Origin: a virus
Lineage: Duplodnaviria; Caudoviricetes
Virus record (IMG/VR): IMGVR_UViG_3300037010_002778
Coordinates: 1 to 54,223 of that record
DNA: 54,223 nt
Reading direction: 5' to 3' (one strand)
The notes under the pieces are model-generated. The model was given only the letters and a program-made list of their open reading frames with translations. It made no database searches and was not told the origin of the DNA. Position 1 is the first letter of the stretch. Each line of letters opens with the position of its first letter. The position numbers and the translations under genes were made by a program. Below are positions 19,177 through 49,854 of this stretch, piece after piece.

Positions 19177-19193
19177 AAATAAATAAAATAAAT

Positions 19194-20597: not shown

Positions 20598-20613
20598 AAA
20601 AATAAAATAAAAT

Positions 20614-22050: not shown

Positions 22051-22067
22051 AAATAAACAAAATAAAT

Positions 22068-23504: not shown

Positions 23505-23517
23505 AAATAAATAAAAT

Positions 23518-33123: not shown

Positions 33124-33140
33124 ACAAAAGGAGAAATAAA

Positions 33141-34316: not shown

Positions 34317-34326
34317 AAATTATAAA

Positions 34327-34857: not shown

Positions 34858-34880
34858 TTAAAAATTTTTAAATTTAAACT

Positions 34881-34921
34881 AAATCCTATTTTAAAAATAT
34901 AAATTTAAAATAGGATTTTTT
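34881..34921 (+). terminator. 15-bp perfect inverted repeat; terminator-like and overlapping a putative promoter
   Basis: AAATCCTATTTTAAA-aatataaa-TTTAAAATAGGATTT plus T run. Confidence 0.65.
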
Positions 34922-35476
34922 GTGGCAAAAGTCATAAATTTTTTTGGAGCTCCAGGAGTTGGAAAATCAACGGTCGCTGCTGAAATATTTTCTCAACTAA
35001 AGAAAAAAGGACTTAATGTTGCTTTAGTTACAGAGTTCGCTAATTTTAAAATAACAGAAAAATCTTTTAAAGCCGTTCAAAATCAATACTATGTAACCTC
35101 AAAACAACTATACAATCAAGAAGTTTTTGAAGACAAATACAATATAGTAATTACTGATTCACCTATTTTATTAAGTTTTATATATTCGAATGACTCTATA
35201 GTTGACAAAAAATTTAATGAATTTATTTTAGAGAAATTTAAAGAAAAAGAAAATATTAATTTTTTGTTAAACCATGATACTGTAACTTTAAATAATTTTT
35301 CAATGAATGGTAGACGTCATAAAAAATCAAAATTAGAACAAATTCACAATAAAATTGTTGAAACATTAAAAAGTAATAATATTGAATATAAAAATGTTTT
35401 TAAAGATTATATTCAATTAAAATATTACGTTGAACAGGATTCATTAGTAGACTATATAATTAAAGGGCTCGTTTAA
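34922..35476 (+). CDS. P-loop nucleotide kinase (NadR/AAA_28-like)
   Basis: INFFGAPGVGKST, ITDSP and GR.H. Confidence 0.8.
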   Translation: MAKVINFFGAPGVGKSTVAAEIFSQLKKKGLNVALVTEFANFKITEKSFKAVQNQYYVTSKQLYNQEVFEDKYNIVITDSPILLSFIYSNDSIVDKKFNEFILEKFKEKENINFLLNHDTVTLNNFSMNGRRHKKSKLEQIHNKIVETLKSNNIEYKNVFKDYIQLKYYVEQDSLVDYIIKGLV

Positions 35477-35489: not shown

Positions 35490-36275
35490 TTACAAAATAT
35501 GTTCACCAAAAAAATAGTGGTTTTTCTTTTTAATTTTTATTTTTTCAAAGTCTCCTTTAAAAAGTAAAACTGTTTGCGATCCCCAATTAAAATTACCTAT
35601 TCTGTCACCAATTTTTACATTTTGGTTGGTTTTTATATTAAAATCAAAATCTTGGATCGTTGATTCGCCTACTAATAACAAAAATACATTTCCTATTTTG
35701 GTATTATATTTGACAATCCAAAGTGAATTTTTACCAAATATTCTTAAATCTTTTGAAATAGGCATTAAATCTACTATTTTCCCAGAGACAGGAGAGTGTA
35801 TATTATGGTAATAACTTACATATAATTTCATATTAACAAAATTATATGTATCATCGACACCTACTTGTTTTAAATCTTCGATTACAGTATTTGTTGGTTT
35901 TTTTAGTCTTATTATAGAAGACATATCTGAAGTTTTTCCAATCGATTCAATTACACATTCATTAGGAATTATAATTTTTGTATTTTTTGAATTTTCTTTT
36001 ATTTCATTAAGTTTAGTTTCTTTTAAATTTCTTGTGAAAAAATCCATAAAATTATCAAATTCTGTTTTCTCGTACCAATCCATAGAAACTGGAGACATTT
36101 TTATTTTCTTTTTAATGTTATTTATTGTGTCTCTATTTTGAAAACCTTCGATTAATTTTTTTAAATTTTCTTTTCCAATATTTTGCGATTTGACAAACTT
36201 TAATTTAGCAAGAACATAACGCTCATTTACTTTGTTTTCTACACGCTCCATCAATTCATAAATTATTTTCTCCAT
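35490..36275 (-). CDS. psd: Phosphatidylserine decarboxylase-like proenzyme
   Basis: FMDFFTRNLK, YHNIHSPVSG, LVGE and self-cleavage motif GNFNWGSQTVLLF (LGST equivalent). Confidence 0.8.
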   Translation of the reverse strand: MEKIIYELMERVENKVNERYVLAKLKFVKSQNIGKENLKKLIEGFQNRDTINNIKKKIKMSPVSMDWYEKTEFDNFMDFFTRNLKETKLNEIKENSKNTKIIIPNECVIESIGKTSDMSSIIRLKKPTNTVIEDLKQVGVDDTYNFVNMKLYVSYYHNIHSPVSGKIVDLMPISKDLRIFGKNSLWIVKYNTKIGNVFLLLVGESTIQDFDFNIKTNQNVKIGDRIGNFNWGSQTVLLFKGDFEKIKIKKKNHYFFGEHIL

Positions 36276-37533
36276 TTAAAATAGTTGTTTTTTTAATTGG
36301 TCTTAAGACTGTATTTGGTGATATTTTATTTTTTAAAGCTATTAAAACACCTGCAGCCTCTAAATAATTATTTACCTCGATCAATTGGTTTTGTCTCCAA
36401 GGTAAATCTTTTAAATTATTTTTCATTACATTATTGTTATCTTTTACTGAAATCACTGTAATATTTTGTTCTAAAGCTGCCAATAATGGTATACCTATTG
36501 CTCTTTCTGGTGTAATTAAAACGTGGACATCTTGATTTGTTAAAATTCCTTGTTCTATAGAATAATTTACTATTTTTGGTGAATTAAAAAGCCCTTTTAT
36601 TACACAAAATAATTCAGTTTTTGATAAAGTTTCAGCACACTTTTTAGGATTAACGATTCCATATTTATATAAAAGTTGACTTTCATAGAACATTGGTGCA
36701 TGTGCGATACTAACATTTGACAAATTAGATATACTATGAGTTAACATACTTTCTATACCGCCCCAAGGATTTACATTTAAATTATCGTTAAAATAATTAT
36801 CGAATAATTCATCAGAATCTCCCTCCATTAATGTATGTAAAACTATAGAATCATAATCGTTTTTATATTTTTCAACTATTTCTATTAAATTTTCTAAATT
36901 ATTTACTTTTCCAACTGCCATATTATTTTCGTTATAATAAAAATAATATTTTGGTGGCTTTTCAATTTGAACAACATCGATGTCGGCTCCAAGAACAACT
37001 CTTGCGGCAGAAGCTGTATTTATTGTATAATTTGAAATATAATCATGTTCTGACTTATCAGAAATTAAAAGTATTCTATTACCTCTTGTTGGTGATAAAC
37101 CAATTTGCCCCGTTATAAACCTATTTAAAATAGAGCCCTCTACATATAAAGTATTTTCAGTCATTTCATTCATATCGGCAGCGTTTACTACATTTGGGTG
37201 AGTTATTAATGTATCTACTGTACTTGCAATTAATTTAGCAGCTGCATTTGCATCTCCAGAGTCTCCGCCAACATTTGCTCCAATTCCAGTAGGAACTATC
37301 ATTATGGCATTAAATTTAGAATTATTAACATTTTTTCTTGGATTAAAATTAAAAATATTTTTATAATTATAACTCTGTTCTGTTAATTCAGCGTATTCTG
37401 CTTCCATCAATTCGTTATTAAAAATAGCAAATCTTACAACTTGCTTATTTTTAAAATAATTTTTTAAATTTTCAAAATTTCCATTTTTTTCAATTTGAAA
37501 ATTTAATTTTTCGTTCATTTGAACAATGTCCAT
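36256..37533 (-). CDS. DUF3326-family protein
   Basis: IVPTGIGANVGGDSGDA, LITHPNVVNAAD, LYVEGS, GGIESMLTH, AHAP and NYLEAAG. Confidence 0.8.
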   Translation of the reverse strand: MDIVQMNEKLNFQIEKNGNFENLKNYFKNKQVVRFAIFNNELMEAEYAELTEQSYNYKNIFNFNPRKNVNNSKFNAIMIVPTGIGANVGGDSGDANAAAKLIASTVDTLITHPNVVNAADMNEMTENTLYVEGSILNRFITGQIGLSPTRGNRILLISDKSEHDYISNYTINTASAARVVLGADIDVVQIEKPPKYYFYYNENNMAVGKVNNLENLIEIVEKYKNDYDSIVLHTLMEGDSDELFDNYFNDNLNVNPWGGIESMLTHSISNLSNVSIAHAPMFYESQLLYKYGIVNPKKCAETLSKTELFCVIKGLFNSPKIVNYSIEQGILTNQDVHVLITPERAIGIPLLAALEQNITVISVKDNNNVMKNNLKDLPWRQNQLIEVNNYLEAAGVLIALKNKISPNTVLRPIKKTTILNGENNL

Positions 37534-37673: not shown

Positions 37674-38543
37674 ATGAAAAATTTAATTATATTAGGAAAT
37701 GGTTTGGCTGCATTGATTTATGCAACATATAATATTGACAAAAATGTTGTAATTGTTGGTAATAAAATAGGTGGACAAATGTCAAGTGAAATTTCACTTG
37801 GTCCACGTATAATACAAAGTGATAATTATACAAAAAATTTTATTAAAAATTTTTTATTATTAGATGACATTAAAACAAAAAAAACTTTTATAAAATATAA
37901 ATATAATGATAAATTTTTAAAAAATTCTACTCCTGAATTTAGAAACAAATACTCAATTATTACTCGTGATAAAGATGTAGCAAGTAATTATACGATGTCT
38001 CAAAATAAAAATGAAATTGAATATTTTGACATAAAGTACAATATTTTTATTAATATTTTATATCAAAAATTATTGACATATAATAACATTCAATTTATTA
38101 ATGGTGATGTTATAAAAATAACAAGTGATTATATTGAATTGAATGATTTAAGAAAAATATACACTAAAAACTCAGAAAAAGTTAATACAATACCTCTTTA
38201 CATTTTTAAAAAATTAATAAATATGGATTATTTGGAATTAAATAGTAAGCCTGTATATTTTTATCACAAAAAAAATAAAAAATTTATTAACAATTTTTAT
38301 TATGTTTATCAAATCAACGATTTTAAAGTTGTTCCACATAGAATTACATATTATGATGATAATATAATCGAGGAAAGTATTGAAAAAATAAGTGACAATT
38401 ATATTGCAATTATACCAAAAATTATAAACGAAACTCCATTCGATTTAATAGGTGATTGGAAAATGTTTGGTAGATTTGCTGAATGGGATCAGAGTATAAA
38501 AATAAATGAAATGTTAAAAAAATTGGAAAATTCAAATGATTAA
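37674..38543 (+). CDS. FAD-dependent oxidoreductase, UDP-galactopyranose-mutase-like
   Basis: N-terminal IILGNGLAAL dinucleotide-binding motif, IGG, and C-terminal FGRFAEW. Confidence 0.65.
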   Translation: MKNLIILGNGLAALIYATYNIDKNVVIVGNKIGGQMSSEISLGPRIIQSDNYTKNFIKNFLLLDDIKTKKTFIKYKYNDKFLKNSTPEFRNKYSIITRDKDVASNYTMSQNKNEIEYFDIKYNIFINILYQKLLTYNNIQFINGDVIKITSDYIELNDLRKIYTKNSEKVNTIPLYIFKKLINMDYLELNSKPVYFYHKKNKKFINNFYYVYQINDFKVVPHRITYYDDNIIEESIEKISDNYIAIIPKIINETPFDLIGDWKMFGRFAEWDQSIKINEMLKKLENSND

Positions 38544-39429
38544 TTTGTGGAATTTACAATTAGAGTTTGAAAAAAAATTTTTTAAATATAAAAAATTAAA
38601 TATTGAAGAACTAAATTTAGAACAAAAACGTATTTGGACAAAAGAATTTTATATGCATATAATTGTTGAGTTGTCAGAAATGATAAACAGTTTACAATAT
38701 AAAATGCATCGTAATTATATTGATGAAATTAATGAAAATAATATTAAAGAAAATTTAATTGATGCTCAAAAATTATTAATGGGATTATCGCAACTTTGGT
38801 TTAACGATTATTATGAATTTGAAAATTTATTTATTGATAAATCAATAGTTGTTGATCTTAGATTTGAATTTGAAAAAGTACAAAATATTGCATTAACTAA
38901 TAAAAATATAGCTATTATTGATATAGACGGAGTTTTAGCCGACTTAGAGTATTCAACGATGGAATTTATTAAAGAAAAGTTTAGTGATTTTTCACACTTT
39001 AAAAATACACGTGAGATTAAAAATAAATTTCCAATTGAATACGAAAAAATTAAAGCTGAATTCCGTTTAGGTAAGTACCATAGGAATGTTAAATTAATAG
39101 ATAAAGCTGACGATTTCATAAATAAATTAGCGGAAGATTTTAAAATAATAATTATTACAGCTCGACCTTATGAAAAATATAATAATTTATGGGCTGATAC
39201 AATGTATTGGTTAAAAAATAATAATATTAAATTTGATGCTTTGTATTTTGACAATAAAAAACACGAAAAAATAATAGAAATATTTAAAAATAATTTAAAT
39301 AATATTAAATTCATTGTTGACGATTCAGCTGAAATTTGTAAACAAGTCGAAAAAATAGGTATAAAATCATTTAATATAGATCATAAAAATATAACATTTA
39401 ATACAATTTTAAACAATATAAAAAAATGA
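38536..39429 (+). CDS. Fusion of an all-alpha dNTP pyrophosphatase (dimeric dUTPase/gp56/MazG-like) and a HAD nucleotidase
   Basis: N-domain LQ..F, ELSE, YKMHR, ENLID; C-domain DIDGVLAD, ITAR, VDD. Confidence 0.8.
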   Translation: MINLWNLQLEFEKKFFKYKKLNIEELNLEQKRIWTKEFYMHIIVELSEMINSLQYKMHRNYIDEINENNIKENLIDAQKLLMGLSQLWFNDYYEFENLFIDKSIVVDLRFEFEKVQNIALTNKNIAIIDIDGVLADLEYSTMEFIKEKFSDFSHFKNTREIKNKFPIEYEKIKAEFRLGKYHRNVKLIDKADDFINKLAEDFKIIIITARPYEKYNNLWADTMYWLKNNNIKFDALYFDNKKHEKIIEIFKNNLNNIKFIVDDSAEICKQVEKIGIKSFNIDHKNITFNTILNNIKK

Positions 39430-39860
39430 AAGAAACAATTGTAATTTTAGATGGTGTCGATAAAACCGGTAAAGATACACTTCAAAAAGAATTAATAAAA
39501 ATTGCAAATGGTAAAATTATGCCAATAAACAGAGGTTTTGTATCGCAAATTGCATATAGTCGAATTTATAATAGAGGTATTGACGAAGATTATTTTTTTA
39601 AAAAAGCTAATGCTTTTTATAAATTAGGAGTTAAACTTATTATACTTACAGCATCAGAGAATGAATTAATAAAAAGATTTGATATTCATGGTGAAAAAGA
39701 CTTATTAAAATCTGATATAAAAAAACATTTGAATGTGTTTGACTCGGTTGTTAATGATTTAATTACAAAAGCAGCTGTTGAGGTATTATTAATTGACACG
39801 ACAAAAAAAGATATAAACGAAACAGTAACTGAAATTTTAAATTTTATAGGGGAAAAATAA
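39426..39860 (+). CDS. dNMP kinase (thymidylate-kinase-like)
   Basis: LDGVDKTGKDT, NRG..SQ.AY and IDTT. Confidence 0.8.
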   Translation: MKETIVILDGVDKTGKDTLQKELIKIANGKIMPINRGFVSQIAYSRIYNRGIDEDYFFKKANAFYKLGVKLIILTASENELIKRFDIHGEKDLLKSDIKKHLNVFDSVVNDLITKAAVEVLLIDTTKKDINETVTEILNFIGEK

Positions 39861-40909
39861 TGAATATATTTATTACAGGTGAATCGGGTGCTATTCCAAA
39901 AGCTATGCAAAATGACGAATTACTTAAAACATTCGATTTTAAAATTACAAATCACCAACAACATGATCCTTTTAAAATTAAAATTCTAAAAGCACATCAA
40001 TCTTTTAAAGTTAGAGAACCAGAAATAGATTTTTTAAATAAAGAGCTTCTTTTTTCAAAAAAAATGGAAAAAGTTTGGGAAAATACCGATGTAATTATAC
40101 ACTCAGGAGCTTTTGTAGGTACAGATTATTGCAATGCCAATACTAATTTGGCTATAAGAACAAATATTGAAGGAACTCAAAATATTGTTGAAATTGCAAA
40201 TAAATTTAATATAAAATTAGTATATCTTTCAACAACAATTATTTTTGATACCGATGATTATGGTGAATATAAATTAATAACTGAACAAACAAAAACAAAT
40301 CCTAAAACTTTATATGGTATAACAAAATATGCAGGTGAACAAATAGTTGAAAAAACATGCAAAACAGATAAAGTTATAGTTAGACCTGTATTTGGTTATT
40401 CTAATTACCCTGATGATTTACATAGTGCATTAACAAAATTTATATATGTAAAATTATATAATTTAATAAAAAATCCTATTACGCCTTTAAAATTAAATAT
40501 TTTGTTAAATAAAAATATTGAAAAAACGTATACTCATGCTGAAAATTTAGCTTATTTAATTTTTAAAATTTTAAAATCAAACTATTGGAACGATGCTTTT
40601 AATATTGGTGATAAAGCTGAAAATTCAGCTAATTGGTATCAATTAAATTCAATAATAAATAATTTAATTTATAATAAATTAAATATAAAATTGTTAGACG
40701 ATGATTTTAATGATGTAAATTTTATTGAAAATGAAGATTATTTACATTGGCATAATATTTCAACTATAAAATTACAAAGAATGGGATTATTTAATAATTT
40801 TAATAAAAATTATATTTCATTAGAAAATGGAATAGAACAAGTAATAGATTCAGTTGTAAAAAATATTGATCAATTACCTTATTGGACACTAAGCGATAAA
40901 ATTATATGA
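39860..40909 (+). CDS. NAD-dependent NDP-sugar epimerase/dehydratase (extended SDR)
   Basis: IFITGESG, IIHSGA, NIEGT and catalytic YGITK. Confidence 0.85.
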   Translation: MNIFITGESGAIPKAMQNDELLKTFDFKITNHQQHDPFKIKILKAHQSFKVREPEIDFLNKELLFSKKMEKVWENTDVIIHSGAFVGTDYCNANTNLAIRTNIEGTQNIVEIANKFNIKLVYLSTTIIFDTDDYGEYKLITEQTKTNPKTLYGITKYAGEQIVEKTCKTDKVIVRPVFGYSNYPDDLHSALTKFIYVKLYNLIKNPITPLKLNILLNKNIEKTYTHAENLAYLIFKILKSNYWNDAFNIGDKAENSANWYQLNSIINNLIYNKLNIKLLDDDFNDVNFIENEDYLHWHNISTIKLQRMGLFNNFNKNYISLENGIEQVIDSVVKNIDQLPYWTLSDKII

Positions 40910-40932
40910 AAAATATTTAAACAAATTAAAAA

Positions 40933-43900
40933 ATGAGAAAATTTAAAAACTATATACCTTTACATTTACATTCTACATATTCAATTGGTGATGGTGTTTC
41001 AAAAATAGAGGACATTATAAAACGTGCAAAAGAAATTGGATCTAATTCTATTGCTATTAGTGAACATGGTACAATGGCATCATTTTATAAATTTTATTTA
41101 ACTGCAAAAAGTAATAATATTAATCCAATTATTGGATGTGAATTTTATGTAAATGATTTATATTTTAGTGATAATGAAAAATTTTTAAAAATAAAAAGGA
41201 CAAAAAGTAGTTCAAGCGATGATTTAGAGGGTGACGAGGACAATTATGACAAAACTGATGCTGCTAATTCTCATTTAATCGTATATGCTAAAAACTTTGA
41301 AGGGTTACAAAATATTATTCATTTAAATAATATAGCAGCTCAAAATTTTTATCGTAAACCTTTAATTTCAACTGATCATGTATTTAATATTTTAGATGAA
41401 AATAATATTGTAACAACTGCATGTTTAGCATCAAAATTTAATAAATTAATTTTAAAAAATGAACTTAACGAAGCAGTTGATTTGTTAAAAAAATATAAAA
41501 ATAAATTTAAAGATGATTTTTATATTGAATATCATATTAACGATTTAAAGGAACAACTTAAAGTTAATAAATTTTATGAAGTAGTATCAAAAAAATTAAA
41601 AATACCTCTTGTTTTAGGTATTGATGCTCATTACGTTTATAAAGAAGATTGGAAAATACAATATTTATTATATGTAATTAAAACTCGTAATACAGTTAAT
41701 ACAATGCCTGAAAGCAAATGGTTTTATACCGTTAGAGATTTGTATATTAAAACAGTTGATGATATTTACGATAAAGCTGAATTATTAAATTATAATATCG
41801 ATGCTGTTAATGAAGCAATTGCATCGACATTTGATATTGCCAATAAAGTAAATATTGAAATTCCTAAATATCGTAATAATTTTCCTAAATTTTTTGAAAA
41901 CTATGAAGATTCTGTTGATACTTTTAATAAAAAATTAGAAATAAAATGGGATGAAAAAGTAAAAAATGGTTTAATCCCAAATGACAAAATTGAACAATAC
42001 CGTGAACGTTTAGAACAAGAACGAAAATTAATGATCGACAAGGGGTATATTGACTATTTTTTAATATTAGATGATTTATTAAACAATTTTGTTTATAAAA
42101 CTGGAGGCTCTTCTGGAGCAGGACGTGGATCAGCCTCTGGTTCTTTAATACTTTTTATTTTAGGTGTTACAAAAATAGATCCATTAAAATACGATTTAAT
42201 ATTTGAACGATTTATAAACGAAGCTAGAACTGATCCACCTGATGTGGACTGTGATATAGATCATATTACGCAAAAAAAGGTTGAAAATTATTTAATAGAG
42301 CGTTGGGGACATGACAAAGTTTGTCATGTTGGTAGTTTTGGTAAATTTGGTACTAAAACTCTTATAAAGGATATTTGTCGAGTTTATGAATTAGATTTTA
42401 ATTTGTCGAATCAGTTGACAGCGTTATTTAGTACTACAAAAAGTGATTCCGATATAAGAATTGAATTGGAAAATGCTTATAATATTGCTCAAAAAACAAA
42501 TAATTATAATTTAATTGACTTTATCGACAAAAACAAATCACTGTTTATTGAACTATGCGACAAAATGACAGGAATGATACGACAACAAAATAGACATGCA
42601 TCCGGGGTACTTATTAGTGACAAAACATTTGAAAATAGTGATCTTCCAATTGCATATACAAAAGGTAGTTTAATAACAAATGTACAGGAGGGTGGTGAGG
42701 ATCGTGAGGTTTCGGAGTTAGGGTATCTAAAATTGGATATTTTAGGTTTAATTACAGCTACAATTAATGGTGAGACGATAAAATTAGTAGAAAAAAATTA
42801 TAATATTAAAAATTTAGAAAATCAATTATTATTGTCAAATTTTGATGACGTTAATGTATATAAAGAATTTGGAATTGGTAACTCAAAAGATATTTTTCAA
42901 TTTGGTTCTGATTCGATGATTGAGTTAATGAAGCGAATAAAGCCAAATAGTATACAAGAACTTACAACTATAAATGCATTGTTTAGACCTGCCCTCGTTC
43001 AAAATGGTTCTATTAATGAATATATTAAAAATCGTGAAAATCCAAATAAAGCTAAAAAAGAATACGATAAAATAAGTAAAGATATTTGGCCTTTATTTAA
43101 AGAAACATTTGGTATTCCTTTATACCAAGAATCAATTATGCTTATTTTACAAAAAATAGGTGGTTTTACATTGGCTGAAGCTGACAAAGTAAGAAAAACT
43201 TTAAAACTTTTTTATAAAAAATATCAAGACAAATCAGAAACTTTTTTAAATGTAATCGATAAATTTAAAACACAAGCTATAAATAATGGTCTTTCAGAGG
43301 AAGGAACCGAAGTATTGTTACAAAAATTAGCTACTTATACAGAATATTCGTTTAACAAATGTCTTTCTGGTAATACTTATGTTCAAACTATTAATGGTAT
43401 AAAACAAATTTCTGATTTTTTAGGTGGTGAAATTGTTATATCAGTTGATCCTGTTACAAAAAAAGTATATCAAACTAAAGTTAAAAAATTACATAAAAAT
43501 GGTATAAAAAAATTATATTCAATTAAAACTGAAACAGACGAAATTATTGAATGTACGTTAGATCATAAATTTATGATAAAGTCTGGAAAAATGAAGACGT
43601 TAAAACAAATTATTGAAAATAACTATAAAATTTGTATTGTTGGTAATAAAAATGTAATTTTAAATAAAGACTCTTTAAAAGAAATAGGTTTTGAAGAAAC
43701 ATTTGATTTGGAAATTGATGATAAAAATCATAATTTTGTATTGTCAAATGGTATAGTAACATCAAATTCTCATGCCGTTGCTTATGCGATGAATGCTTAT
43801 ATTTCACAATGGCTTAAAATTCATTATCCCAAAGAATATTATGCAACGTTATTAAATTACACAAATATAGATGAAATTTCAATTTTTATTAAACAAGCTA

Positions 43901-44736
43901 CTTTACAAAATGTTAAAATAGGTAGTTGTACTTATGGTAATTCGGACAACAAATTTACAGTTGATTATAAAAATAATATAATTAGATTTGGTCTTAATTT
44001 AGTCAAAGGATTAAGAACAAATGACATTGAAAAAATAAATAATAATTCTAAAATAAAAGACAAAGTAATGTTAATTAAATTTATAATTGACTCTAAACTT
44101 AACAAAAAAACAGTTGAAGTATTATCACGTTTAGGTTATTTTTCAAATATAATAAGTAACAATAATTTATTTACTGAAAAATTATTATTAAAATTAAAAA
44201 ATTCTAAAAATTTTGATTTGGAATTAAATGCTTATTTAAAGTATGAGCCAAAATTTGCAAATTATCAAAAATACGAAACGTTACAATTTGAAAAGGAATA
44301 TTTAGGATTTTATTTAAGTGAACACCCGTTTGGAGAGTTTTACAATAAATTATTACAAAAAAATATTGCAAAAAATTATATAAGACCTAAAGACTTAAAT
44401 GAAATTTCAAATAAAAAACAAGGTATAAATTTAGTTGCATTATTAGGTGATATTATTTTGTTAAAGTCAAAAAAGACAGGTAAAGAATATTACAGGTTGG
44501 TACTTGAAGATGATGAAACACAAATAAATGTTACAATTTTTGACGCTGAATTGATTAAAAATTTAAACAAAGGTGATTTTATAAATATAATTATAAATAA
44601 AGATATTTTTGGTTATTCAGCTATTAAAAACAAACAAATAAAAATATTTAATAATGATAACGAAATTGATTTTAAAAATAAAATTATTGATTTTGAAACA
44701 ATTAATGTGCAACAAAGAACAAAAAGGTTATTTTAA
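40933..44736 (+). CDS. dnaE: DNA polymerase III alpha subunit (family C) containing a mini-intein
   Basis: PHP domain LHLHSTYSIGDG, GAGRGSASGS, PPDVDCD, RHASG, KLDILG, LYQE, FNK|SHAVAY, and an OB-fold C-terminus. Confidence 0.95.
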   Translation: MRKFKNYIPLHLHSTYSIGDGVSKIEDIIKRAKEIGSNSIAISEHGTMASFYKFYLTAKSNNINPIIGCEFYVNDLYFSDNEKFLKIKRTKSSSSDDLEGDEDNYDKTDAANSHLIVYAKNFEGLQNIIHLNNIAAQNFYRKPLISTDHVFNILDENNIVTTACLASKFNKLILKNELNEAVDLLKKYKNKFKDDFYIEYHINDLKEQLKVNKFYEVVSKKLKIPLVLGIDAHYVYKEDWKIQYLLYVIKTRNTVNTMPESKWFYTVRDLYIKTVDDIYDKAELLNYNIDAVNEAIASTFDIANKVNIEIPKYRNNFPKFFENYEDSVDTFNKKLEIKWDEKVKNGLIPNDKIEQYRERLEQERKLMIDKGYIDYFLILDDLLNNFVYKTGGSSGAGRGSASGSLILFILGVTKIDPLKYDLIFERFINEARTDPPDVDCDIDHITQKKVENYLIERWGHDKVCHVGSFGKFGTKTLIKDICRVYELDFNLSNQLTALFSTTKSDSDIRIELENAYNIAQKTNNYNLIDFIDKNKSLFIELCDKMTGMIRQQNRHASGVLISDKTFENSDLPIAYTKGSLITNVQEGGEDREVSELGYLKLDILGLITATINGETIKLVEKNYNIKNLENQLLLSNFDDVNVYKEFGIGNSKDIFQFGSDSMIELMKRIKPNSIQELTTINALFRPALVQNGSINEYIKNRENPNKAKKEYDKISKDIWPLFKETFGIPLYQESIMLILQKIGGFTLAEADKVRKTLKLFYKKYQDKSETFLNVIDKFKTQAINNGLSEEGTEVLLQKLATYTEYSFNKCLSGNTYVQTINGIKQISDFLGGEIVISVDPVTKKVYQTKVKKLHKNGIKKLYSIKTETDEIIECTLDHKFMIKSGKMKTLKQIIENNYKICIVGNKNVILNKDSLKEIGFEETFDLEIDDKNHNFVLSNGIVTSNSHAVAYAMNAYISQWLKIHYPKEYYATLLNYTNIDEISIFIKQATLQNVKIGSCTYGNSDNKFTVDYKNNIIRFGLNLVKGLRTNDIEKINNNSKIKDKVMLIKFIIDSKLNKKTVEVLSRLGYFSNIISNNNLFTEKLLLKLKNSKNFDLELNAYLKYEPKFANYQKYETLQFEKEYLGFYLSEHPFGEFYNKLLQKNIAKNYIRPKDLNEISNKKQGINLVALLGDIILLKSKKTGKEYYRLVLEDDETQINVTIFDAELIKNLNKGDFINIIINKDIFGYSAIKNKQIKIFNNDNEIDFKNKIIDFETINVQQRTKRLF
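43360..43767 (+). mobile_element. Contiguous 136-aa mini-intein in DnaE, no homing endonuclease
   Basis: CLSGNT (block A), CTLDH (B), TFDLEI (F), NGIVTSN|S (G). Removing it restores FNKSH. Confidence 0.93.
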
Positions 44737-45503
44737 TGAATGTATTAAGTTATGAATATATTGAAAATTTAAGAGTAGTTGCAGGCACATTACCTTCAGA
44801 GACTCCTAAAAAAAATACAAAGTTAATTAAAATTAATGATTCTATTGAAGTTGAGATGGTTGATCATAATTTAAATCCTTATAAAGCAATGTTTTTAACA
44901 GCAACTGCAACTTGGGGAAACAATGAATATGCGAATAAATGGAACAAAACTTTTAAAGAAGGTAAATTTGAAGTTATAAAAGCAGTTTTGTCTCATAATA
45001 CATTACCTCAAGCACGTGAAGTTGTTAATTTTATTTTTAGAGTTAAAGGTGTTCCTCGTTGGCTTTTTGACGAACATACACAGGTTAAATTTATGACAAT
45101 TATGAGTATAGGTTGTAGAGATAATAATAAATTGGATGCCGATATTATTACAGAATCAACATCAAATGTTTTTTTAAAATTAAAGGATTTATACGAAGAA
45201 ACTTTAAATAAAAACGGTGGATCTTGGCAAGTTGCTCGAGCGTTTTTGTCTCAATCGTATTCGCATTCATATTTTTTTGCTCAAAATTTATTAGCTATTT
45301 CAAATGCAATTAACTTTAATTCAAATATTAAAAATTTATATTTAAATTATATTGTACCTGAGATTGAAAATAATTTCCCTTTATTAGGTGATTATTTAAA
45401 TTCAATTTGGGATAAAAATTTAAAAAATAAATTTTTTGAAAAATTAAAAAATATGAAGTATAATGAATTGTCTGAATTAGACAAAAAATATTTTGGAGTA
45501 TAA
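44736..45503 (+). CDS. ThyX (Thy1)-like protein A, divergent
   Basis: PQAREVVNFIFRVKGVPRWLFD and WQVARAFL follow the ThyX pattern, but RHR is absent (HTQVK). Confidence 0.65.
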   Translation: MNVLSYEYIENLRVVAGTLPSETPKKNTKLIKINDSIEVEMVDHNLNPYKAMFLTATATWGNNEYANKWNKTFKEGKFEVIKAVLSHNTLPQAREVVNFIFRVKGVPRWLFDEHTQVKFMTIMSIGCRDNNKLDADIITESTSNVFLKLKDLYEETLNKNGGSWQVARAFLSQSYSHSYFFAQNLLAISNAINFNSNIKNLYLNYIVPEIENNFPLLGDYLNSIWDKNLKNKFFEKLKNMKYNELSELDKKYFGV

Positions 45504-45504
45504 A

Positions 45505-46176
45505 ATGATTGAATATAAAAATTTAAAAATTTTTAAAGGCGTTGAAGATTTAAAAATTGACATAATTTCATTAAATGAAGATTCTGTTGAATATACAGTC
45601 AGTAATACTCCTATTTGTCAATGGGATCAGCATTCACGAGCTCGTATAGGTATTAAATTTTTGGATTATAAAGTTAGTGACATTCCTGAATATGTAATGT
45701 ATACATTTGTTTACAACGAAATGGTAAAAAATGAAAATTATAAAAATAAAGTATTGACAGCATTATTAGAATTAGAGGAAGAACGTAATAAATCAGATTT
45801 TAAAACAGACTTTAATTTAATGACACGTAATTGTTCATATAGAGTTATACAAACTTTTGAATCATTAGAAGGTCAAATGGCAAGACGTCTTAAATTATGT
45901 GAAGAAGAATTTATTGTTGGAACTCATGTACTTTTACGTGACAAATTAATTAAATTAGGACTTGAAAAAGCAAAAAAATATAAACCTGGTTGTGATTTTA
46001 TTCAAAAATGCGATTATTCATCAGCTGACTATTTGTCAAATATGTTTGGTTGTTTATTTGCTGGATGTGGTAGATGGTCTTCTGGTACAAATTTTGCAAC
46101 ATTTAATTTTTCATGTACAACAGTTGAAGAAATTGAACAACAATTAATGATTGAATACCCAAAAAAAGAAATTTAA
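45505..46176 (+). CDS. ThyX (Thy1)-like protein B, divergent, with Cys-rich C-terminus
   Basis: DQHSRAR (RHR-equivalent), MARRL, and CDFIQKC...C...C. ATG at 45505 follows GGAG. Confidence 0.55.
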   Translation: MIEYKNLKIFKGVEDLKIDIISLNEDSVEYTVSNTPICQWDQHSRARIGIKFLDYKVSDIPEYVMYTFVYNEMVKNENYKNKVLTALLELEEERNKSDFKTDFNLMTRNCSYRVIQTFESLEGQMARRLKLCEEEFIVGTHVLLRDKLIKLGLEKAKKYKPGCDFIQKCDYSSADYLSNMFGCLFAGCGRWSSGTNFATFNFSCTTVEEIEQQLMIEYPKKEI

Positions 46177-46191
46177 GGAGAAATTGAAAAT

Positions 46192-46743
46192 ATGTTTAAT
46201 GATTTTTATTTAAATATAAAATTAGAAGAAAATGGAATTATGCCAACTCGAGCACATGATTCTGACGCTGGGTTGGACTTTTATTCACCTGGTAATTATG
46301 AAATTAAACCTAATGGTGATATTTTAATACCATTACAAGTTAGAACTGAATTTCCAAAAGGCTATGCTTTAATTTTTAAAGAAAAATCAGGAATAGCCAC
46401 TAAAAAACATCTATCGCTTGGAGCATGTGTATCGAGTAGTACTTATGTTAAAACTAATAAAGGAACTTTTTCGGTTTTGAATTTAAACAGTGAATTTATA
46501 AAAAATAATGAAATTCAAATTTTATCTTACAATAGAGATTTAAACAAATTTGAATATAAAAATTTTGATGGATTTCGACCAACAGGAGAGAAAAAAGTTT
46601 ATAAAATAACCTTTGAAGATGATTCGTTTATTGAAGTAAGTGAAGACCATAAATTTTTAACAGAAGATAATCTATATGTATCAATTGAACAATATTTAAA
46701 CGAAGAAGAAAATATAAATTTTGATTTTAAAATTTTAAAATAA
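46192..46743 (+). CDS. dut: Trimeric dUTPase N-extein (78 aa) plus 105-aa split-intein N fragment
   Basis: dUTPase motifs I (DAGLD) and II (KSG), then CVSSST (Cys at 46426) and block B VSEDHKF, with an acidic tail. Confidence 0.92.
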   Translation: MFNDFYLNIKLEENGIMPTRAHDSDAGLDFYSPGNYEIKPNGDILIPLQVRTEFPKGYALIFKEKSGIATKKHLSLGACVSSSTYVKTNKGTFSVLNLNSEFIKNNEIQILSYNRDLNKFEYKNFDGFRPTGEKKVYKITFEDDSFIEVSEDHKFLTEDNLYVSIEQYLNEEENINFDFKILK

Positions 46744-46783
46744 TAAAAAGTTTTATTTGAAACAACAAAGGAGTTAATTTTAA

Positions 46784-47092
46784 ATGAAAATAAAAAAAAT
46801 AGATTTCATTGGAATTCAAAAAGTATACAATACCAACGTCGATGACAATGGTAATTATGTATCAGAAAATGGAATTGTACATAAAAATTGTGTAGTGGAC
46901 AGTGAATATCGTGGTATTTTAAAATTACATTTATTTAATCACTCTAATATGTATGTACCAATTAAAAAAGGTGAAAAAATAGTCCAAGCTATTGTTATGC
47001 CTATATGGACAGGTCAACCTATTTTAGTTGATGAACTTGATTTAAACTCAAAAAGAGGTGAAGGTGGATTCGGATCAACTGATAAAAATTAA
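46784..47092 (+). CDS. dut: 35-aa split-intein C fragment plus dUTPase C-extein
   Basis: Own AAGGAG RBS. MKIKKI...VYN..V..NGNYVSENGIVHKN|CVVDSEYRG (motif III), KIVQ (IV), RGEGGFGST (V). Confidence 0.92.
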   Translation: MKIKKIDFIGIQKVYNTNVDDNGNYVSENGIVHKNCVVDSEYRGILKLHLFNHSNMYVPIKKGEKIVQAIVMPIWTGQPILVDELDLNSKRGEGGFGSTDKN

Positions 47093-47672
47093 AACAAATA
47101 TTGTCGAACTTAATAAATTATTCCAAATACCTTGTCAAGAATGGTACAGTAAATTTATTGATGGTAAAATTGATGCCCATCGAGCTTTTAATGAATATGG
47201 TGAACAATATAATTGGTTATATAAAAATTCCAATTATGATTTGATCGGATGGCAAATCGAAAATTATTGTTTTAATTGGGAAACAAGTAGTCATCATATT
47301 GTTCAAAATTGTCCAGAATATTTTGATACAAAAAAATATAATTGGAAAGAATATAGTTGGGCAATTGTTCGATACTCTCCACAATTTTTTGATACAGAGA
47401 AATATAATTGGGAAAAAGATAGTTGGGCAATTGCTACATTTTGTCCACAACTTTTTGATACAGAAAAGTATAATTGGGAAAAAGATAGTGCAGCGATAAT
47501 AAAATTTTGTCCTCAACATTTTAATGCAGAAAAATACAATTGGAAAAAAGACAGTGCAATAGTTGCTATATTCCATCCACAACTTTTAGATGCAGAAAAG
47601 TATAATTGGGAAAAAGACAGTGGGGCGGTAAAAAAATATTGTCCAAAAAAATTAAAATTAAAACAAATTTAA
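47058..47672 (+). CDS. Hypothetical protein with six 22-aa repeats (YNWEKDSxAIxxFCPQxFDxEK)
   Basis: 66-bp tandem units at about 47271-47650. The start codon is uncertain. Confidence 0.75.
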   Translation: MKVDSDQLIKIKTNIVELNKLFQIPCQEWYSKFIDGKIDAHRAFNEYGEQYNWLYKNSNYDLIGWQIENYCFNWETSSHHIVQNCPEYFDTKKYNWKEYSWAIVRYSPQFFDTEKYNWEKDSWAIATFCPQLFDTEKYNWEKDSAAIIKFCPQHFNAEKYNWKKDSAIVAIFHPQLLDAEKYNWEKDSGAVKKYCPKKLKLKQI

Positions 47673-47715: not shown

Positions 47716-47958
47716 ATGAATTCAAGTCAACCGACAAAAATTAATAATTTACAAAACGAATATGTAAATTCAATTTTACAAAATATAAAATCTTGTGAAA
47801 TTAATTTATTTAAAAATTTTGATGATGATAATAAAATTTACAAATACGAATTTGATTTCATATCGAACGACGATAAAGTTCATAAATACGAAATTGTTTT
47901 TAAAATAAATAAAGAATATAATTTTTCACTTTCATCAGAATTTAAAAACAAATCATGA
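47716..47958 (+). CDS. Hypothetical protein
   Basis: 80-aa ORF with ATGA overlap to the next gene and an internal DDxKxxKYE duplication. Confidence 0.6.
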   Translation: MNSSQPTKINNLQNEYVNSILQNIKSCEINLFKNFDDDNKIYKYEFDFISNDDKVHKYEIVFKINKEYNFSLSSEFKNKS

Positions 47959-49355
47959 AGCAAATCAATCCTCCATTAGACCAAAAATATTTGACTTTTG
48001 GCGATTTTGTTGATTTAGTTTATGTTTTTGGGTATAAAAACAAACATTACATTAAAGAAAATTTAAGAAAATTAGGAATTTACAATCCAATTTTTACATT
48101 AAATGATTTTAATAGTACTTTTTTTAAAAATTTAAAATATTTTTTGAATGATGATAAAAACACAAAACGTATTTTATTTTTAAAAGACAATGTTCATTTT
48201 CATTCAAAAATTGTTGATTATTGTTGGTTAACAAATAATAACGTTCCTTCAAATTTTGACGTTTTTTTAGTGGGTTATGAAGGTAAAATTAGTTTAGGTG
48301 AAAAAATAAATTATTTTACCTTTAATTTACCTAATCCTGACAATATAGAGTTAAAATTAATTAAAAATTATAACGAAATAAATGACATTTATGGTTTAGT
48401 TTTAAATAAAGATTTTATTTTAAACTTAAATAATGAAGTAAATTCAATTGAAGATATATTAAAAAATACTAATTCTAATCATATAATTTTAGCACCTACT
48501 ATAAAATATTTTGAGACTGATATAAATGACTCTAACTATGTTCCAATAGTACAAAAAGATTTAAATATTTTTAAATTTAGACAACTTAATGAACATTTTG
48601 GAGACTCAATTTGGTATATAACATTTTTTAATAAATTACTTAAAAAATATTCAGAAATATCAATTTATTATTATGTTCGCGGCCACTACTTATATGAACT
48701 AAATAAATTAAAAACTTCAAATCGTCTTCAACTTTTTGATATAAAAGACTTAAATGAAGACATACCATTTATTCATTTTGGACAAGATGATAGTGTTTTG
48801 GAAACAGCTCAAAAGTTTTCGTTTCAATTTTCAAAAATAAAGCAATATTATTTTAATGATTTTTTAAAAAAGCATTTTAATATCAACAATTTTGAGTTTA
48901 GTGAAGATGAAACATTTTATGAGAATGATGATATAAAAAATAATTATAATTTTGAATTTTTAATTGTTAACTCAAATTCAATGGCTTTAAATTTTGCCAC
49001 TGAAACTGAAAAATTAAATGAATTATTTGAAATTTTAGCCGACAAATTAAATGAACTTAATGTAAAATTTATAACAACTGAAAAAATAAAGGATTATCCT
49101 TGTACTCGTGAATTAGCACCCAATTTTATAGATATTTTTAATTTATCACAAAATTTAAACTATATTGTAGGTATGGACACTGGTCCTGTAAATGTAGCTG
49201 TTAATAAAAATAACTTATATAAACTTAAAAAATTTATAATTTTAAACACAAATGGATGGAATTATAATAACTATAAAAATTCAATGGCAATTTTTAGTAC
49301 AAAAGATTTTGAAAATTTAATAAACAATTTAGGTGATTTTTTAAATGGAAATTAA
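47955..49355 (+). CDS. Glycosyltransferase with GT9/heptosyltransferase-like C-domain
   Basis: HFGDSIW and IVGMDTGP motifs; paralog of 50442..51806. Confidence 0.6.
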   Translation: MKQINPPLDQKYLTFGDFVDLVYVFGYKNKHYIKENLRKLGIYNPIFTLNDFNSTFFKNLKYFLNDDKNTKRILFLKDNVHFHSKIVDYCWLTNNNVPSNFDVFLVGYEGKISLGEKINYFTFNLPNPDNIELKLIKNYNEINDIYGLVLNKDFILNLNNEVNSIEDILKNTNSNHIILAPTIKYFETDINDSNYVPIVQKDLNIFKFRQLNEHFGDSIWYITFFNKLLKKYSEISIYYYVRGHYLYELNKLKTSNRLQLFDIKDLNEDIPFIHFGQDDSVLETAQKFSFQFSKIKQYYFNDFLKKHFNINNFEFSEDETFYENDDIKNNYNFEFLIVNSNSMALNFATETEKLNELFEILADKLNELNVKFITTEKIKDYPCTRELAPNFIDIFNLSQNLNYIVGMDTGPVNVAVNKNNLYKLKKFIILNTNGWNYNNYKNSMAIFSTKDFENLINNLGDFLNGN

Positions 49356-49854
49356 AGTTTACAAAGACAAAATATACCCTCATTTTCAAACAGAAGGTTT
49401 CGCTGCTCAATATGTATTTCCTTTTGCTCAAAAAGTATGTGAAGGAGTTGGTTGTGATATAGGTCCAAACAAACTCGAGTGGGCTTTTCCAGGTTCTATA
49501 CCAGTGGATATTGTTTTTAATGACAAATTTCACGCTTTAAATTTACCTAAAACTAAAAAATTATACGATTACATTTTCTCATCTCATTGTTTAGAGCATA
49601 TAAAAGAAAATTGGACTGACGTTTTGGACTATTGGATGTCCAAAATTAAAGGTGGCGGTATTTTATTTTTGTACTTACCTGATTATTCACAAGAATATTG
49701 GAGACCTTGGAACAATAAAAAACATATTCATATTTTTACGCCTCAAATAATGCAGGATTACTTTAATGACAGAAATGATGTAAAACATTTTTTTGTCTCA
49801 GGTATTGACCTCTATAATTCTTTTTCGGTTGTTGTTGAAAAAGCAGGTTTTTAA
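49345..49854 (+). CDS. Class I SAM-dependent methyltransferase
   Basis: CDIG, DYIFSSHCLEH and KGGGILFLYLP. Confidence 0.85.
   Translation: MEIKVYKDKIYPHFQTEGFAAQYVFPFAQKVCEGVGCDIGPNKLEWAFPGSIPVDIVFNDKFHALNLPKTKKLYDYIFSSHCLEHIKENWTDVLDYWMSKIKGGGILFLYLPDYSQEYWRPWNNKKHIHIFTPQIMQDYFNDRNDVKHFFVSGIDLYNSFSVVVEKAGF

Follow-up and report, generated by a model that had tools for sequence, protein, structure and literature searches.

A conserved phage gene module with divergent ThyX-like proteins and a candidate pathway to a modified pyrimidine

Introduction

Whether a phage operon of nine closely packed genes might supply a modified nucleotide is the question raised by positions 37674-47092 of IMG/VR record IMGVR_UViG_3300037010_002778, a virus contig of the linear class, 54,223 bp in length and estimated to be 17% complete (this whole stretch of DNA is hereafter termed the window). 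An earlier note on this DNA had proposed a modified-nucleotide pathway built around a phage DnaE, in which a pair of ThyX-like enzymes would make a non-standard pyrimidine, possibly bearing a furanose sugar. The nucleotide genes of the operon belong to a conserved, virus-restricted module, which a search of other phage genomes for the same gene set, advised in that note, recovered on 28 further contigs. The constant core of the module is comprised of a non-canonical flavin-dependent ThyX, a flavoprotein of about 300 amino acids (aa) with a UDP-galactopyranose mutase/protoporphyrinogen oxidase (UGM/PPO) fold, and a pyrophosphatase/5'-deoxynucleotidase fusion, with a YorR/Tmk-like kinase, a short-chain dehydrogenase/reductase (SDR), a uracil-DNA glycosylase (UDG)-like domain and DnaE as its frequent neighbours. 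Of the proposal as a whole, the conserved module and the non-canonical ThyX stand, while the furanose sugar and the dedicated DnaE are not supported. The operon is read here as a phage-only module for a pre-replicative pathway to a modified pyrimidine, a tentative reading with nearly as much to be said for it as against it.

The operon and its phage

The genes named in the earlier note were all located at 37674-47092 on the + strand, spaced at -11 to +40 nucleotides (nt), which bears out its description of a tightly coupled operon, and the enzyme labels that it assigned largely hold when judged by profile matches and by matches of structure models. The interval is filled by nine + strand open reading frames (ORFs), as follows.

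37674-38543, + strand: 289-aa flavoprotein; GxGxxA N-terminal dinucleotide-binding motif, UGM/PPO-type fold
38536-39429, + strand: 297-aa nucleoside triphosphate (NTP) pyrophosphatase-haloacid dehalogenase (HAD) phosphatase fusion; NT5C above cut-off, weak dUTPase_2
39426-39860, + strand: 144-aa P-loop kinase of YorR/thymidylate-kinase type; GVDKTGKD P-loop
39860-40909, + strand: 349-aa extended SDR of the nucleoside diphosphate (NDP)-sugar epimerase/dehydratase/reductase class; YGITK catalytic motif
40933-44736, + strand: 1267-aa DnaE-type DNA polymerase III alpha; DNA_pol3_alpha 1.9e-56
44736-45503, + strand: 255-aa ThyX-like paralog A; Thy1 7e-4, 19.8 bits (below the cut-off of 24.8)
45493-46176, + strand: 227-aa ThyX-like paralog B; no Pfam match, paralog of A
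46192-46743, + strand: dUTPase N-extein (aa 1-78) and apparent 105-aa split-intein N-half, which a stop codon ends
46784-47092, + strand: apparent 35-aa split-intein C-half, ending ...HKN, and dUTPase C-extein, from Cys36 (DNA 46889)

Successive ORFs lie -8, -4, -1, +23, -1, -11, +15 and +40 nt apart, and the operon is preceded by a 140-nt gap, beyond which are two - strand genes. A terminator scan placed a single + strand terminator-like site within the operon, at 42308 inside dnaE; a promoter scan, with 151 sites against 127.7 +/- 9.3 in shuffles, is uninformative in DNA of 23% G+C.

The window has a G+C content of about 23% (A+T 77%) and contains neither terminal repeats nor tRNA genes. Its other genes include a T4-type portal (Portal_T4, 7.5e-58), a RecA-family recombinase, a DnaB-like helicase, a Rad50-like/Metallophos (SbcCD-type) pair and a GH108 lysozyme. 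The portal, recombinase, helicase and SbcCD-type pair identify the window as a fragment of a large T4-like (jumbo) phage, the full genome of which would be roughly 300 kb, as the completeness estimate implies. The stretch is present in four public runs, all labelled as microbial mat or sediment metagenomes, and no RNA run was among the public runs matched. A tblastn search of GenBank phages with dnaE returned 1422 records, all below 60% identity and the best at about 28%, so that no close cultured relative is found there.

Conservation of the module

The module was counted on 29 contigs, namely the window and 28 others; related loci or contigs are denoted by L-numbers, genome records of relatives by G-numbers, and contigs of this count by c-numbers. 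The individual families occur as follows.

Flavoprotein: 28 of 29 contigs
Hydrolase fusion: 28 of 29 contigs
Divergent ThyX: 25 of 29 contigs
DnaE near the module: 24 of 29 contigs
UDG-like domain: 17 of 29 contigs
SDR: 16 of 29 contigs
Small kinase: 15 of 29 contigs
dCMP deaminase: 9 of 29 contigs
Canonical ThyX: 9 of 29 contigs, one being the intermediate form of L027

The gene set is more than a chance assembly, because the same families recur together on the 28 other contigs. All 14 loci recovered from IMG/VR with paralog A as the query also bear the flavoprotein and the hydrolase; paralog B added two further contigs, and a flavoprotein profile found 24 loci, 11 of them on new contigs. These 11 comprise seven with a divergent ThyX and two with an intermediate ThyX (L027, L029), and of the remaining two one locus lies at a contig end just past the hydrolase and one has no more than a fragment. 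The hydrolase gene directly follows the flavoprotein gene (-60 to +500 nt) on 24 of the 27 contigs that have both, and on 11 of 25 contigs the ThyX-like gene is an immediate or overlapping neighbour of the flavoprotein gene; two different gene orders of the module are seen in relatives. The neighbours there include ribonucleotide reductase (RNR), dCMP deaminase, DnaE, primase and exonucleases.

The family is sparsely represented outside of viral metagenomes. Among 185,579 species genomes a single match was obtained, on a 9.5-kb contig of an archaeal metagenome-assembled genome that carries the whole module, and neither the ThyX-like protein nor the flavoprotein has a match in 50,697 GenBank phage records. 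A module so widespread in metagenomes and yet missing from cultured phages represents a blind spot. No paper on a module of a divergent ThyX with a UGM-like flavoprotein was found in a full-text literature search of main texts, and the module is not described in the accessible portions of PMC7824862, PMC8989533, PMC5954106, PMC6514825 and PMC11940539, or in those of bioRxiv 10.1101/2021.08.24.457595 and 10.1101/2023.12.21.572611.

The relative L008 presents the most instructive arrangement. Its genes run from RNR through a GIY-YIG endonuclease, a canonical ThyX (Thy1 7.6e-70), a small ORF and a dCMP deaminase to a thymidylate kinase of 211 aa, which immediately precedes the divergent ThyX; next come the flavoprotein and the hydrolase fusion, and then a DnaE that has a UDG domain (6e-17) at its N-terminus, a kinase of 154 aa, an SDR, an ORF without assigned function and PolA. 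A standard branch to thymidine monophosphate (dTMP) and the divergent set thus stand side by side on this contig. That the divergent ThyX has such neighbours in other phages (canonical ThyX, dCMP deaminase, and a thymidylate kinase longer than the small one) fits a parallel route for a non-standard pyrimidine, with a hydrolase that clears the competing nucleotide. Canonical and divergent ThyX occur together on eight contigs in all, and because of these eight the role of the divergent enzyme is probably not the usual synthesis of dTMP.

The divergent ThyX family

The two ThyX-like genes of the earlier note are borne out as paralogs that belong to a divergent ThyX family, restricted to viruses, with a Cys-rich tail. 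Only three of the 14 loci (L001-L003) share the two-gene form of the window; the other 11 have one gene, encoding a protein of 335-391 aa. Paralog A is 37-54% identical to the N-terminal and central part (approximately the first 260 residues) of these single-gene homologs, and paralog B aligns with their residues ~86-320 (E-values of 1e-18 to 1e-28). Because both align to overlapping parts of one single-gene family, A and B are truncated paralogs that go back to a single ancestral gene.

The family as a whole is recognizable as ThyX by several means. Pfam Thy1 matches 12 of 17 family members at E<=0.1, the best at 2.9e-13, and when the single-gene family is compared by hidden Markov models (hhalign) with the canonical ThyX that these phages also encode, the probability is 96.9%. 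An alignment profile of mixed membership had no match in the Protein Data Bank (PDB) at E<=10; a cleaner profile of 46 sequences matches Thermotoga maritima ThyX at 4.5e-5. The fold was modelled on the full-length homolog L013 rather than on the window proteins (predicted local distance difference test score, pLDDT, of 91.1), and a Foldseek search of the PDB with this model places ThyX chains on top (E ~2e-8; template modelling, TM, scores of 0.60-0.75 on the target). In a collection of metagenome proteins, 291 ThyX-like proteins were found at E<=1e-3 among 7379 candidates scored, and these bear, where any, the names hypothetical or ThyX.

The divergent family has the same core fold as canonical ThyX (Thy1; T. 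maritima TM0449, Mycobacterium tuberculosis ThyX), keeps the arginines that contact flavin and dUMP, and likewise would build its active site from several subunits. The single-gene proteins retain the equivalents of Arg66 (Helicobacter pylori numbering) and of Arg78, Arg80, Arg90, Arg147 and Arg174 (T. maritima numbering). In contrast to canonical ThyX, the His of the RHR motif is replaced by Ala, His53 by Leu and the residue at the Tyr91 position by Asp or Asn (within an invariant R-D-N), the alignment of this loop being uncertain by one residue. The motif RHRxxSxxxxSxR is not found in one chain, where the single-gene homologs instead have RAR...S-I-G-x-R. A further difference lies in about 40 extra residues at the N-terminus and a C-terminal extension of about 90 residues that bears four invariant Cys and has no Foldseek match. 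In the accessible part of PMC11940539, Tyr91 and Ser88 of ThyX are described as strictly conserved and critical, and His53 as stacking on flavin and folate. The loss of the His53 and Tyr91 equivalents bears out the view that the ThyX-like enzyme is non-canonical.

Intermediate forms, L027:16878-17645 and L029:7672-8697 (Thy1 2.3e-34 and 1.5e-17), stand beside flavoprotein, hydrolase and DnaE genes. The L027 protein keeps RHR, but His53 is replaced by Met and Tyr91 by Cys, and its C-terminal tail contains Cys; such forms may bridge canonical and divergent ThyX.

The window departs further from canonical ThyX in that the enzyme is split by duplication into two complementary paralogs, each apparently defective alone. 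Residues were compared with those invariant among 28 A-type sequences for paralog A and seven B-type sequences for paralog B.

Arg66 (H. pylori) equivalent: kept in A (R108); Cys in B
RxR motif: lost in A (Q-V-K in the window; consensus T-Q-V-P, no Arg); kept in B (R49-A-R51, in DQHSRAR)
Ser/Arg loop: S124, G126 and R128 kept in A (S124-I-G-C-R128); lost in B
Arg147 equivalent: kept in A (R168); lost in B
Arg174 equivalent: lost in A; kept in B (R132, in RR)
Cys-rich tail: lost in A; kept in B

As described in the accessible part of PMC6514825, canonical ThyX binds flavin through the RHR motif of one subunit, and dUMP is held by the first Arg of this motif and the Arg174 equivalent of the same subunit, together with an Arg, a Ser, an Arg and the lid Tyr of another. 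Because the complementary loss of residues matches this split of subunit roles, A and B would each retain one of the two active-site roles, and only an A/B heteromer could rebuild a full site. An A2B2 tetramer would then hold half the usual number of sites. A prediction of the A+B complex scored an ipSAE of 0.76 (0.76, 0.80 and 0.75 over the runs), a mark reached by 58 of 80 solved complexes and by two of 110 mismatched pairs, with 0.00 for the best of three controls; the runs agreed in at least 59% of contacts, with a partner pLDDT of at least 71. This predicted binding may simply reflect likeness to the solved ThyX homotetramers. Independently of the chemistry, a duplicated ThyX with complementary halves would be a clear example from nature of how subfunctionalisation can lead to an obligate heteromer.

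The flavoprotein

The flavoprotein at 37674-38543, termed mutase-like in the earlier note, is matched by no Pfam, PHROG or NCBIfam family. Its AlphaFold model (pLDDT 80.5, predicted TM score 0.80) was compared with known structures by VIA-align, which ranks UDP-galactopyranose mutases first (Z 18.3, root-mean-square deviation 3.5-3.6, 282-283 of 289 residues aligned, 14-16% identity), followed by protoporphyrinogen oxidases (Z 16.3) and L-amino-acid oxidases (Z ~15.5). Although UGM chains are the best structural match, the oxidases thus score only about 2 Z units lower, and a Foldseek search of the PDB gives many flavoprotein classes at similar scores, without discrimination. With its 289 aa, the protein falls 72-230 residues short of the matched UGM chains, which have 361-519 aa; only a few short helices lie outside the Rossmann part of the model, and the three-domain build of UGM was not found. 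The missing part is presumably the helical domain of UGM that holds UDP. The UGM family profile GLF matches none of 13 family members at E<=1, in searches that list 14 other families; NAD_binding_8 is found in eight of the 13 (best 0.0019) and DAO in six. "Mutase-like" therefore survives as a label for the fold, and fails as a statement of family membership.

The 13 homologs aligned, at 22-31% identity, share invariant G8, G10, A12, G43, R45, Y210, Y212, R223, G266 and R267. By our reading, three features are common to the protein and UGM: GxGxxG near the N-terminus, a loop like 'GP(H/R)xxH', and the motif 'GR(L/Y/F)' towards the C-terminus. The His of this loop is an invariant Arg in the flavoprotein family; R45, R223 and R267 are candidates for the Arg pair that binds the pyrophosphate of UDP in UGM. 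The sequence profile matches only N-terminal Rossmann parts in the PDB, those of thioredoxin reductases (best 0.0055). A thioredoxin-reductase-like role was considered and rejected, since the family has no invariant Cys and its fold is of UGM/PPO type.

The family is large, unnamed and dominated by viruses. Against 1.84 billion representative sequences the profile finds 878 at E<=1e-3, 505 at 1e-10 and 259 at 1e-30, and nearly all of the 150 listed are 280-340 aa long (range 258-413). Clusters of look-alikes in the Atlas are 95-100% viral, and a search of BFVD with the model gave only uncharacterised phage proteins as its top matches.

The hydrolase fusion, the small kinase and the SDR

The second constant companion of the divergent ThyX combines a putative all-alpha (MazG/dimeric-dUTPase-like) NTP pyrophosphatase domain (approximately aa 1-110) with a phosphatase of the HAD 5'(3')-deoxyribonucleotidase type (approximately aa 120-290) that bears a DIDG motif and invariant D129 and D131. 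In Pfam the fusion matches NT5C at 1.1e-5 (25.9 bits, cut-off 24.8) and, below cut-off, dUTPase_2 at 0.007 (17.1 bits, cut-off 22.9); among 13 homologs, NT5C is found in eight and dUTPase_2 in six, the latter at 2.8e-5 at best. The profile matches in the PDB a MazG-like pyrophosphatase (4qgp, 6.3e-4), the dimeric dUTPase of Campylobacter jejuni (0.045) and a putative 5'(3')-deoxyribonucleotidase (3bwv, 0.077). The acidic residues E45, E48, E73 and D76, candidates for metal binding in the pyrophosphatase domain, are present in the window, D76 alone being invariant across the homologs.

The 144-aa protein is probably a deoxynucleoside monophosphate (dNMP) kinase, to judge by its matches to thymidylate kinases (phrog_761, 1.7e-10; Pfam Thymidylate_kin, 6e-4, below cut-off) and by a profile that finds in the PDB first YorR of prophage SPbeta (1.1e-17) and then thymidylate kinases (1e-5 to 1e-6). 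In relatives, a domain of the UDG superfamily that bears the motif G(L/M)NPS, and that was not found in the window, is associated with this kinase or with DnaE: it is fused to the small kinase at L001:7707-8558 and L034:12120-13031, fused to the N-terminus of DnaE at L008:13108-13770, and free-standing after the kinase elsewhere (e.g. L013, L022). A base-flipping UDG domain on a P-loop kinase might make the latter a DNA-base kinase like 5-hydroxymethyluracil DNA kinase (5-HMUDK); its best relatives are YorR and thymidylate kinases.

The SDR matches RmlD_sub_bind (3.9e-23, 82.4 bits) and Epimerase (4.4e-18, 66 bits) and has an invariant triad of T125, Y152 and K156. Its profile finds Pal (6bwl, 2.3e-27) and dTDP-glucose 4,6-dehydratase (5.2e-24) in the PDB; every NCBIfam equivalog scores far below its cut-off. 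The SDR is an accessory part of the module, not of its core.

A possible pathway and its alternatives

Candidates for a modifying enzyme, a dNMP kinase and a hydrolase of deoxynucleoside triphosphates (dNTPs) are found together in the window and recur in relatives, their activities being suggested by family and fold. From the observed gene content, folds, residue patterns and co-occurrence we infer each catalytic step, and the modification of DNA itself, as follows. The ThyX gene would have been duplicated in the window phage, each copy then losing a complementary half of the composite site, so that the enzyme would work only as an A/B heteromer, to which B would give the flavin-binding RxR and the Arg174 equivalent, and A the Ser/Arg substrate loop. 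The split-intein dUTPase, joined in relatives by dCMP deaminase, would supply dUMP to the ThyX-like enzyme, which would add a non-methyl group to the pyrimidine or otherwise alter it. The small kinase would phosphorylate the product towards the triphosphate, the pyrophosphatase/nucleotidase fusion would break the competing canonical dNTP down to the nucleoside, and DnaE, as the ordinary replicase of the lineage, would incorporate the product. The flavoprotein most likely acts together with either the hydrolase or the ThyX-like enzyme, be it in a redox partnership or as an oxidase that tailors the product. A parallel route to a non-standard pyrimidine accounts best for these genes because a canonical ThyX coexists with the divergent one, two residues linked to methylation are lost, a second kinase is present, and the hydrolase would take a dNTP all the way to a nucleoside.

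The UGM-fold class of flavoproteins is known for covalent catalysis through flavin N5. It is conceivable, though doubtful enough to be offered with more reserve than the pathway in outline, that the T4-like phages living in mats and sediments produce a pyrimidine for their DNA by an otherwise undescribed pathway with flavin chemistry throughout, using the ThyX heteromer, the UGM-fold flavoprotein and the hydrolase.

Several points weigh against the modified-pyrimidine reading. Modified DNA in these phages is a prediction from gene content, and with the full set of dUMP-contacting Arg retained the enzyme could synthesize dTMP by a variant mechanism. Near-identical contigs in the count (c04/c05/c06 and c10/c14) represent fewer independent lineages than 29, and all of the contigs were found through these very genes, so that their co-occurrence is partly a matter of ascertainment; within the count, neither the SDR nor the small kinase is constant. 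Since the window holds only about 17% of its genome, genes missing from it mean little. Taken alone, A and B compare only weakly with canonical ThyX (probabilities of 3.2% and 1.6%, in the register expected), and their assignment is a transitive one, made through the single-gene family. In a second clade of the hydrolase some acidic positions of the N-terminal pyrophosphatase domain, which is homologous throughout, carry other residues, and because of these replacements the domain may be inactive there. Finally, in five relatives of the window's type a Thy1 search finds only the divergent proteins themselves and no ThyA was found; G001, at 82% complete the most complete relative of the two-gene form, thus yielded neither another ThyX nor ThyA, as would be expected if the A/B pair were the sole thymidylate synthase, a result that full replacement of T also fits.

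The alternative that survives best, unlikely as we consider it, is ordinary dTMP supply by an unusual ThyX, with the A/B heteromer as the enzyme and with its Cys-rich tail and the flavoprotein providing a different electron input; the hydrolase would balance or sanitise the nucleotide pool, the kinase would be a dTMP kinase, and no modified base would be made. The conservation of every dUMP-contacting arginine of ThyX and the gene content of G001 speak for it, as do the high demand for dTTP set by a genome of 77% A+T, the mat and sediment origin of the runs, which would suit a low-oxygen electron input, and the 11 of 25 contigs on which the ThyX-like and flavoprotein genes overlap or abut as would those of partner subunits. 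The YorR-type kinase, the best PDB match of the small kinase, occurs moreover in SPbeta, which also carries the YorS deoxyribonucleotidase and has no known base modification. Against this, a canonical ThyX beside the divergent one on eight contigs would be redundant, and a pyrophosphatase joined to a 5'-nucleotidase would destroy a nucleotide completely, which is wasteful for balancing a pool. The missing equivalents of Tyr91 and His53 are also critical or conserved residues of ThyX, according to the accessible part of PMC11940539.

It is improbable that the module does not feed DNA at all and instead yields a free nucleotide or nucleoside for the depletion of a defence signal, as a nucleoside-type inhibitor, or for RNA modification. 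ThyX-type enzymes that act on ribonucleotides do exist in nucleoside-antibiotic pathways, the hydrolase fusion would end in a nucleoside and not in a DNA precursor, and the tightest pair of the module is that of flavoprotein and hydrolase (24 of 27 contigs) rather than that of ThyX and kinase. However, the module always lies among genes of replication and dNTP synthesis (RNR, dCMP deaminase, DnaE, primase and exonucleases), and the fusion of a UDG-like DNA-binding domain to the kinase (L001, L034) or to DnaE (L008) points to DNA.

The sugar that the earlier note had envisaged fares worst. It would require the SDR and the mutase-like flavoprotein to make an NDP-furanose, and a glycosyltransferase to add this to a hydroxymethyl-pyrimidine from the ThyX-like pair. 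NDP-furanoses are made by Fcf1/Fcf2 or GalE/Glf. UGM chains are indeed the top structural matches of the flavoprotein, the best PDB relatives of the SDR are all NDP-sugar enzymes, a homolog of the kinase-UDG fusion in Bacillus phage G lies in a cluster annotated with alpha-glucosyltransferases, and the window has a gene for a family 2 glycosyltransferase (GT2) 3.4 kb upstream of the module. In the accessible part of bioRxiv 10.1101/2023.12.21.572611, phage DNA is described as glycosylated by enzymes that need a partner epimerase, and in those clusters the epimerase is paired with its glycosyltransferase. Set against these points, GLF matches none of the 13 flavoprotein members and the 289-aa flavoprotein is short beside UGM chains of 361-519 aa. 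The SDR profile finds a match in three of eight relatives and, among the four with a completeness of 90% or more, in just one (G007), the SDR being absent from the 100%-complete G009, G011 and G013, all of which have the core of the module. The window GT2 has a homolog in none of five relatives; GT2 domains in three of the five and a family 1 glycosyltransferase (GT1) in one lie far from the module where positions are comparable, and G007, 91% complete and with the whole module, has neither GT2 nor GT1. NTP_transferase is likewise absent from all five. The search of these five for the T4 alpha-glucosyltransferase family found no match and is uninformative, as its positive control also failed to match, and that for T4 beta-glucosyltransferase in relatives, with a single match below cut-off, is equally uninformative. 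With no shared glycosyltransferase or sugar nucleotidyltransferase and with the SDR often missing, the co-occurrence of sugar genes that the proposal relied upon failed in relatives, and a furanose sugar derived from the epimerase and mutase is the least probable of the explanations considered.

Comparison with known systems

The pre-replicative set of phage T4 includes the dCMP hydroxymethylase gp42, the dNMP kinase gp1 and the dCTPase gp56, and the 5-hydroxymethyluracil phages SPO1 and phi-e are similar. The module resembles these in having candidates for a base modifier acting on a dNMP, for a dNMP kinase and for a hydrolase of the competing dNTP among replication genes. It differs in that its base enzyme is of the ThyX type and theirs of the ThyA family, and in a hydrolase fused to a 5'-nucleotidase, an obligatory UGM-fold flavoprotein as companion, and DnaE as the replicase. 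The Z-genome cluster, PurZ/MazZ/DatZ/DpoZ, also places a MazG-type pyrophosphatase and a dNTP-destroying hydrolase beside the enzyme for a replacement nucleotide and a phage polymerase, but the base is a purine there and would be a pyrimidine here, with homology limited to the broad all-alpha pyrophosphatase class. Bacillus phage G (NC_023719, 222-241 kb) encodes a homologous kinase-UDG fusion, gp315, annotated as a thymidylate kinase, which aligns, over both the kinase and the UDG-like domain, with 84% of the L034 protein at 28.6% identity (3e-13). By annotation alone, its cluster also contains dCMP deaminase, thymidylate synthase, a HAD hydrolase, a DnaE-like protein, two alpha-glucosyltransferases and glucose-1-phosphate thymidylyltransferase; unlike the module, phage G has no detectable homolog of the divergent ThyX or of the flavoprotein.

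To our knowledge, an enzyme of the ThyA family initiates all of the pre-replicative pyrimidine modifications known from phage DNA. If the proposed pathway is real, the hydroxymethylases and methylases with which the ThyA family serves modified-DNA phages would for the first time have a counterpart in the ThyX family, and the divergent ThyX would mark a second, independent origin of such chemistry. It would also represent a new flavoenzyme chemistry or nucleotide reaction, and possibly a new base of relevance for restriction evasion, sequencing artefacts and enzyme tools.

DnaE and the split-intein dUTPase

The DnaE of the operon is complete, with PHP, NTPase, finger and HHH (HHH_6) domains, and carries an intein (Intein_splicing, 9.3e-11). 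This is a mini-intein of 136 aa (residues 810-945, DNA 43360-43767) within a conserved polymerase motif, without an endonuclease domain, which starts with CLSG and ends with ...TSN, followed by Ser; the DnaE proteins of the relatives L002 and L013 align across the insertion point without an intein. A role for DnaE as a polymerase dedicated to the modified nucleotide, which the earlier note suggests by comparison with known systems, is not supported: of the 29 contigs counted, 24 have DnaE close to the module, and the protein has no marks of specialisation.

The two ORFs of the dUTPase have the anatomy of a natural split intein, as far as their sequences can tell. In the first, the apparent intein N-half begins at Cys79 (DNA 46426); this ORF matches dUTPase (Pfam 1.1e-7, aa 14-85; phrog_135 dUTPase, 8.6e-19) and, below cut-off, Intein_splicing (0.0028, aa 100-160, 17.9 bits against 35.8). 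The second lies 40 nt further on in another frame, with an AAGGAG ribosome-binding site and an ATG of its own, and matches dUTPase at 7.6e-12 (aa 29-99) and phrog_135 at 1.5e-19; its N-terminal 40 aa resemble the N-termini of other phage protein families. By our reading, the two halves together hold the usual conserved dUTPase motifs. Naturally split inteins are known in phage and cyanobacterial genes, including DnaE, gp41-1 and NrdJ-1, and inteins favour essential replication and nucleotide enzymes. The window dUTPase is like these in that an N-half of about 105 aa opens with Cys, a 35-aa C-half closes with Asn ahead of a Cys, and the two are on separate ORFs; it differs in that the host protein is a trimeric dUTPase and in that the halves are just 40 nt apart. 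The N-fragment has no relative among the IMG/VR viral contigs, and a full-text literature search for 'split intein' with 'dUTPase' returned no paper; the two ORFs may represent a new natural trans-splicing pair. Intein-type domains are also seen in ThyX-like homologs, namely Hint in L024:17750-19195 (481 aa) and LAGLIDADG in L035:11891-13881 (663 aa).

Neighbouring features

Directly upstream of the operon and divergent from it, the - strand pair at 35490-37533 encodes a DUF3326 protein (1.1e-74) and a phosphatidylserine-decarboxylase-like protein (6.4e-19); the first 14 related loci have no homolog of either. The interval 33084-35476 holds the GT2 gene (8.1e-14), a weak ADP-ribosyltransferase-like ORF (DRAT, 8.8e-4, below cut-off) and an AAA_28 P-loop protein, a 30%-identical homolog of which lies near the module in L012. 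Shortly after the end of the operon, at 47955-49854, a 466-aa ORF without a family match is translationally coupled to a 169-aa class-I methyltransferase (Methyltransf_23, 5.3e-9), a pair not found in the related loci. Further away, the contig begins (1-1921) with an ORF that is already open and has collagen-like Gly-X-Y repeats (seen in the first 100 bases), and 17677-25098 contains five consecutive ORFs of 467-526 aa with a strong GC skew (0.37-0.43), the first of them without a Pfam match. At 47058-47672, a 204-aa ORF with no family match consists of repeats of about 24 residues, of the type ...CPQ(L/H)FDTEKYNWEKDS..., and a 121-aa ORF runs over these repeats on the opposite strand.

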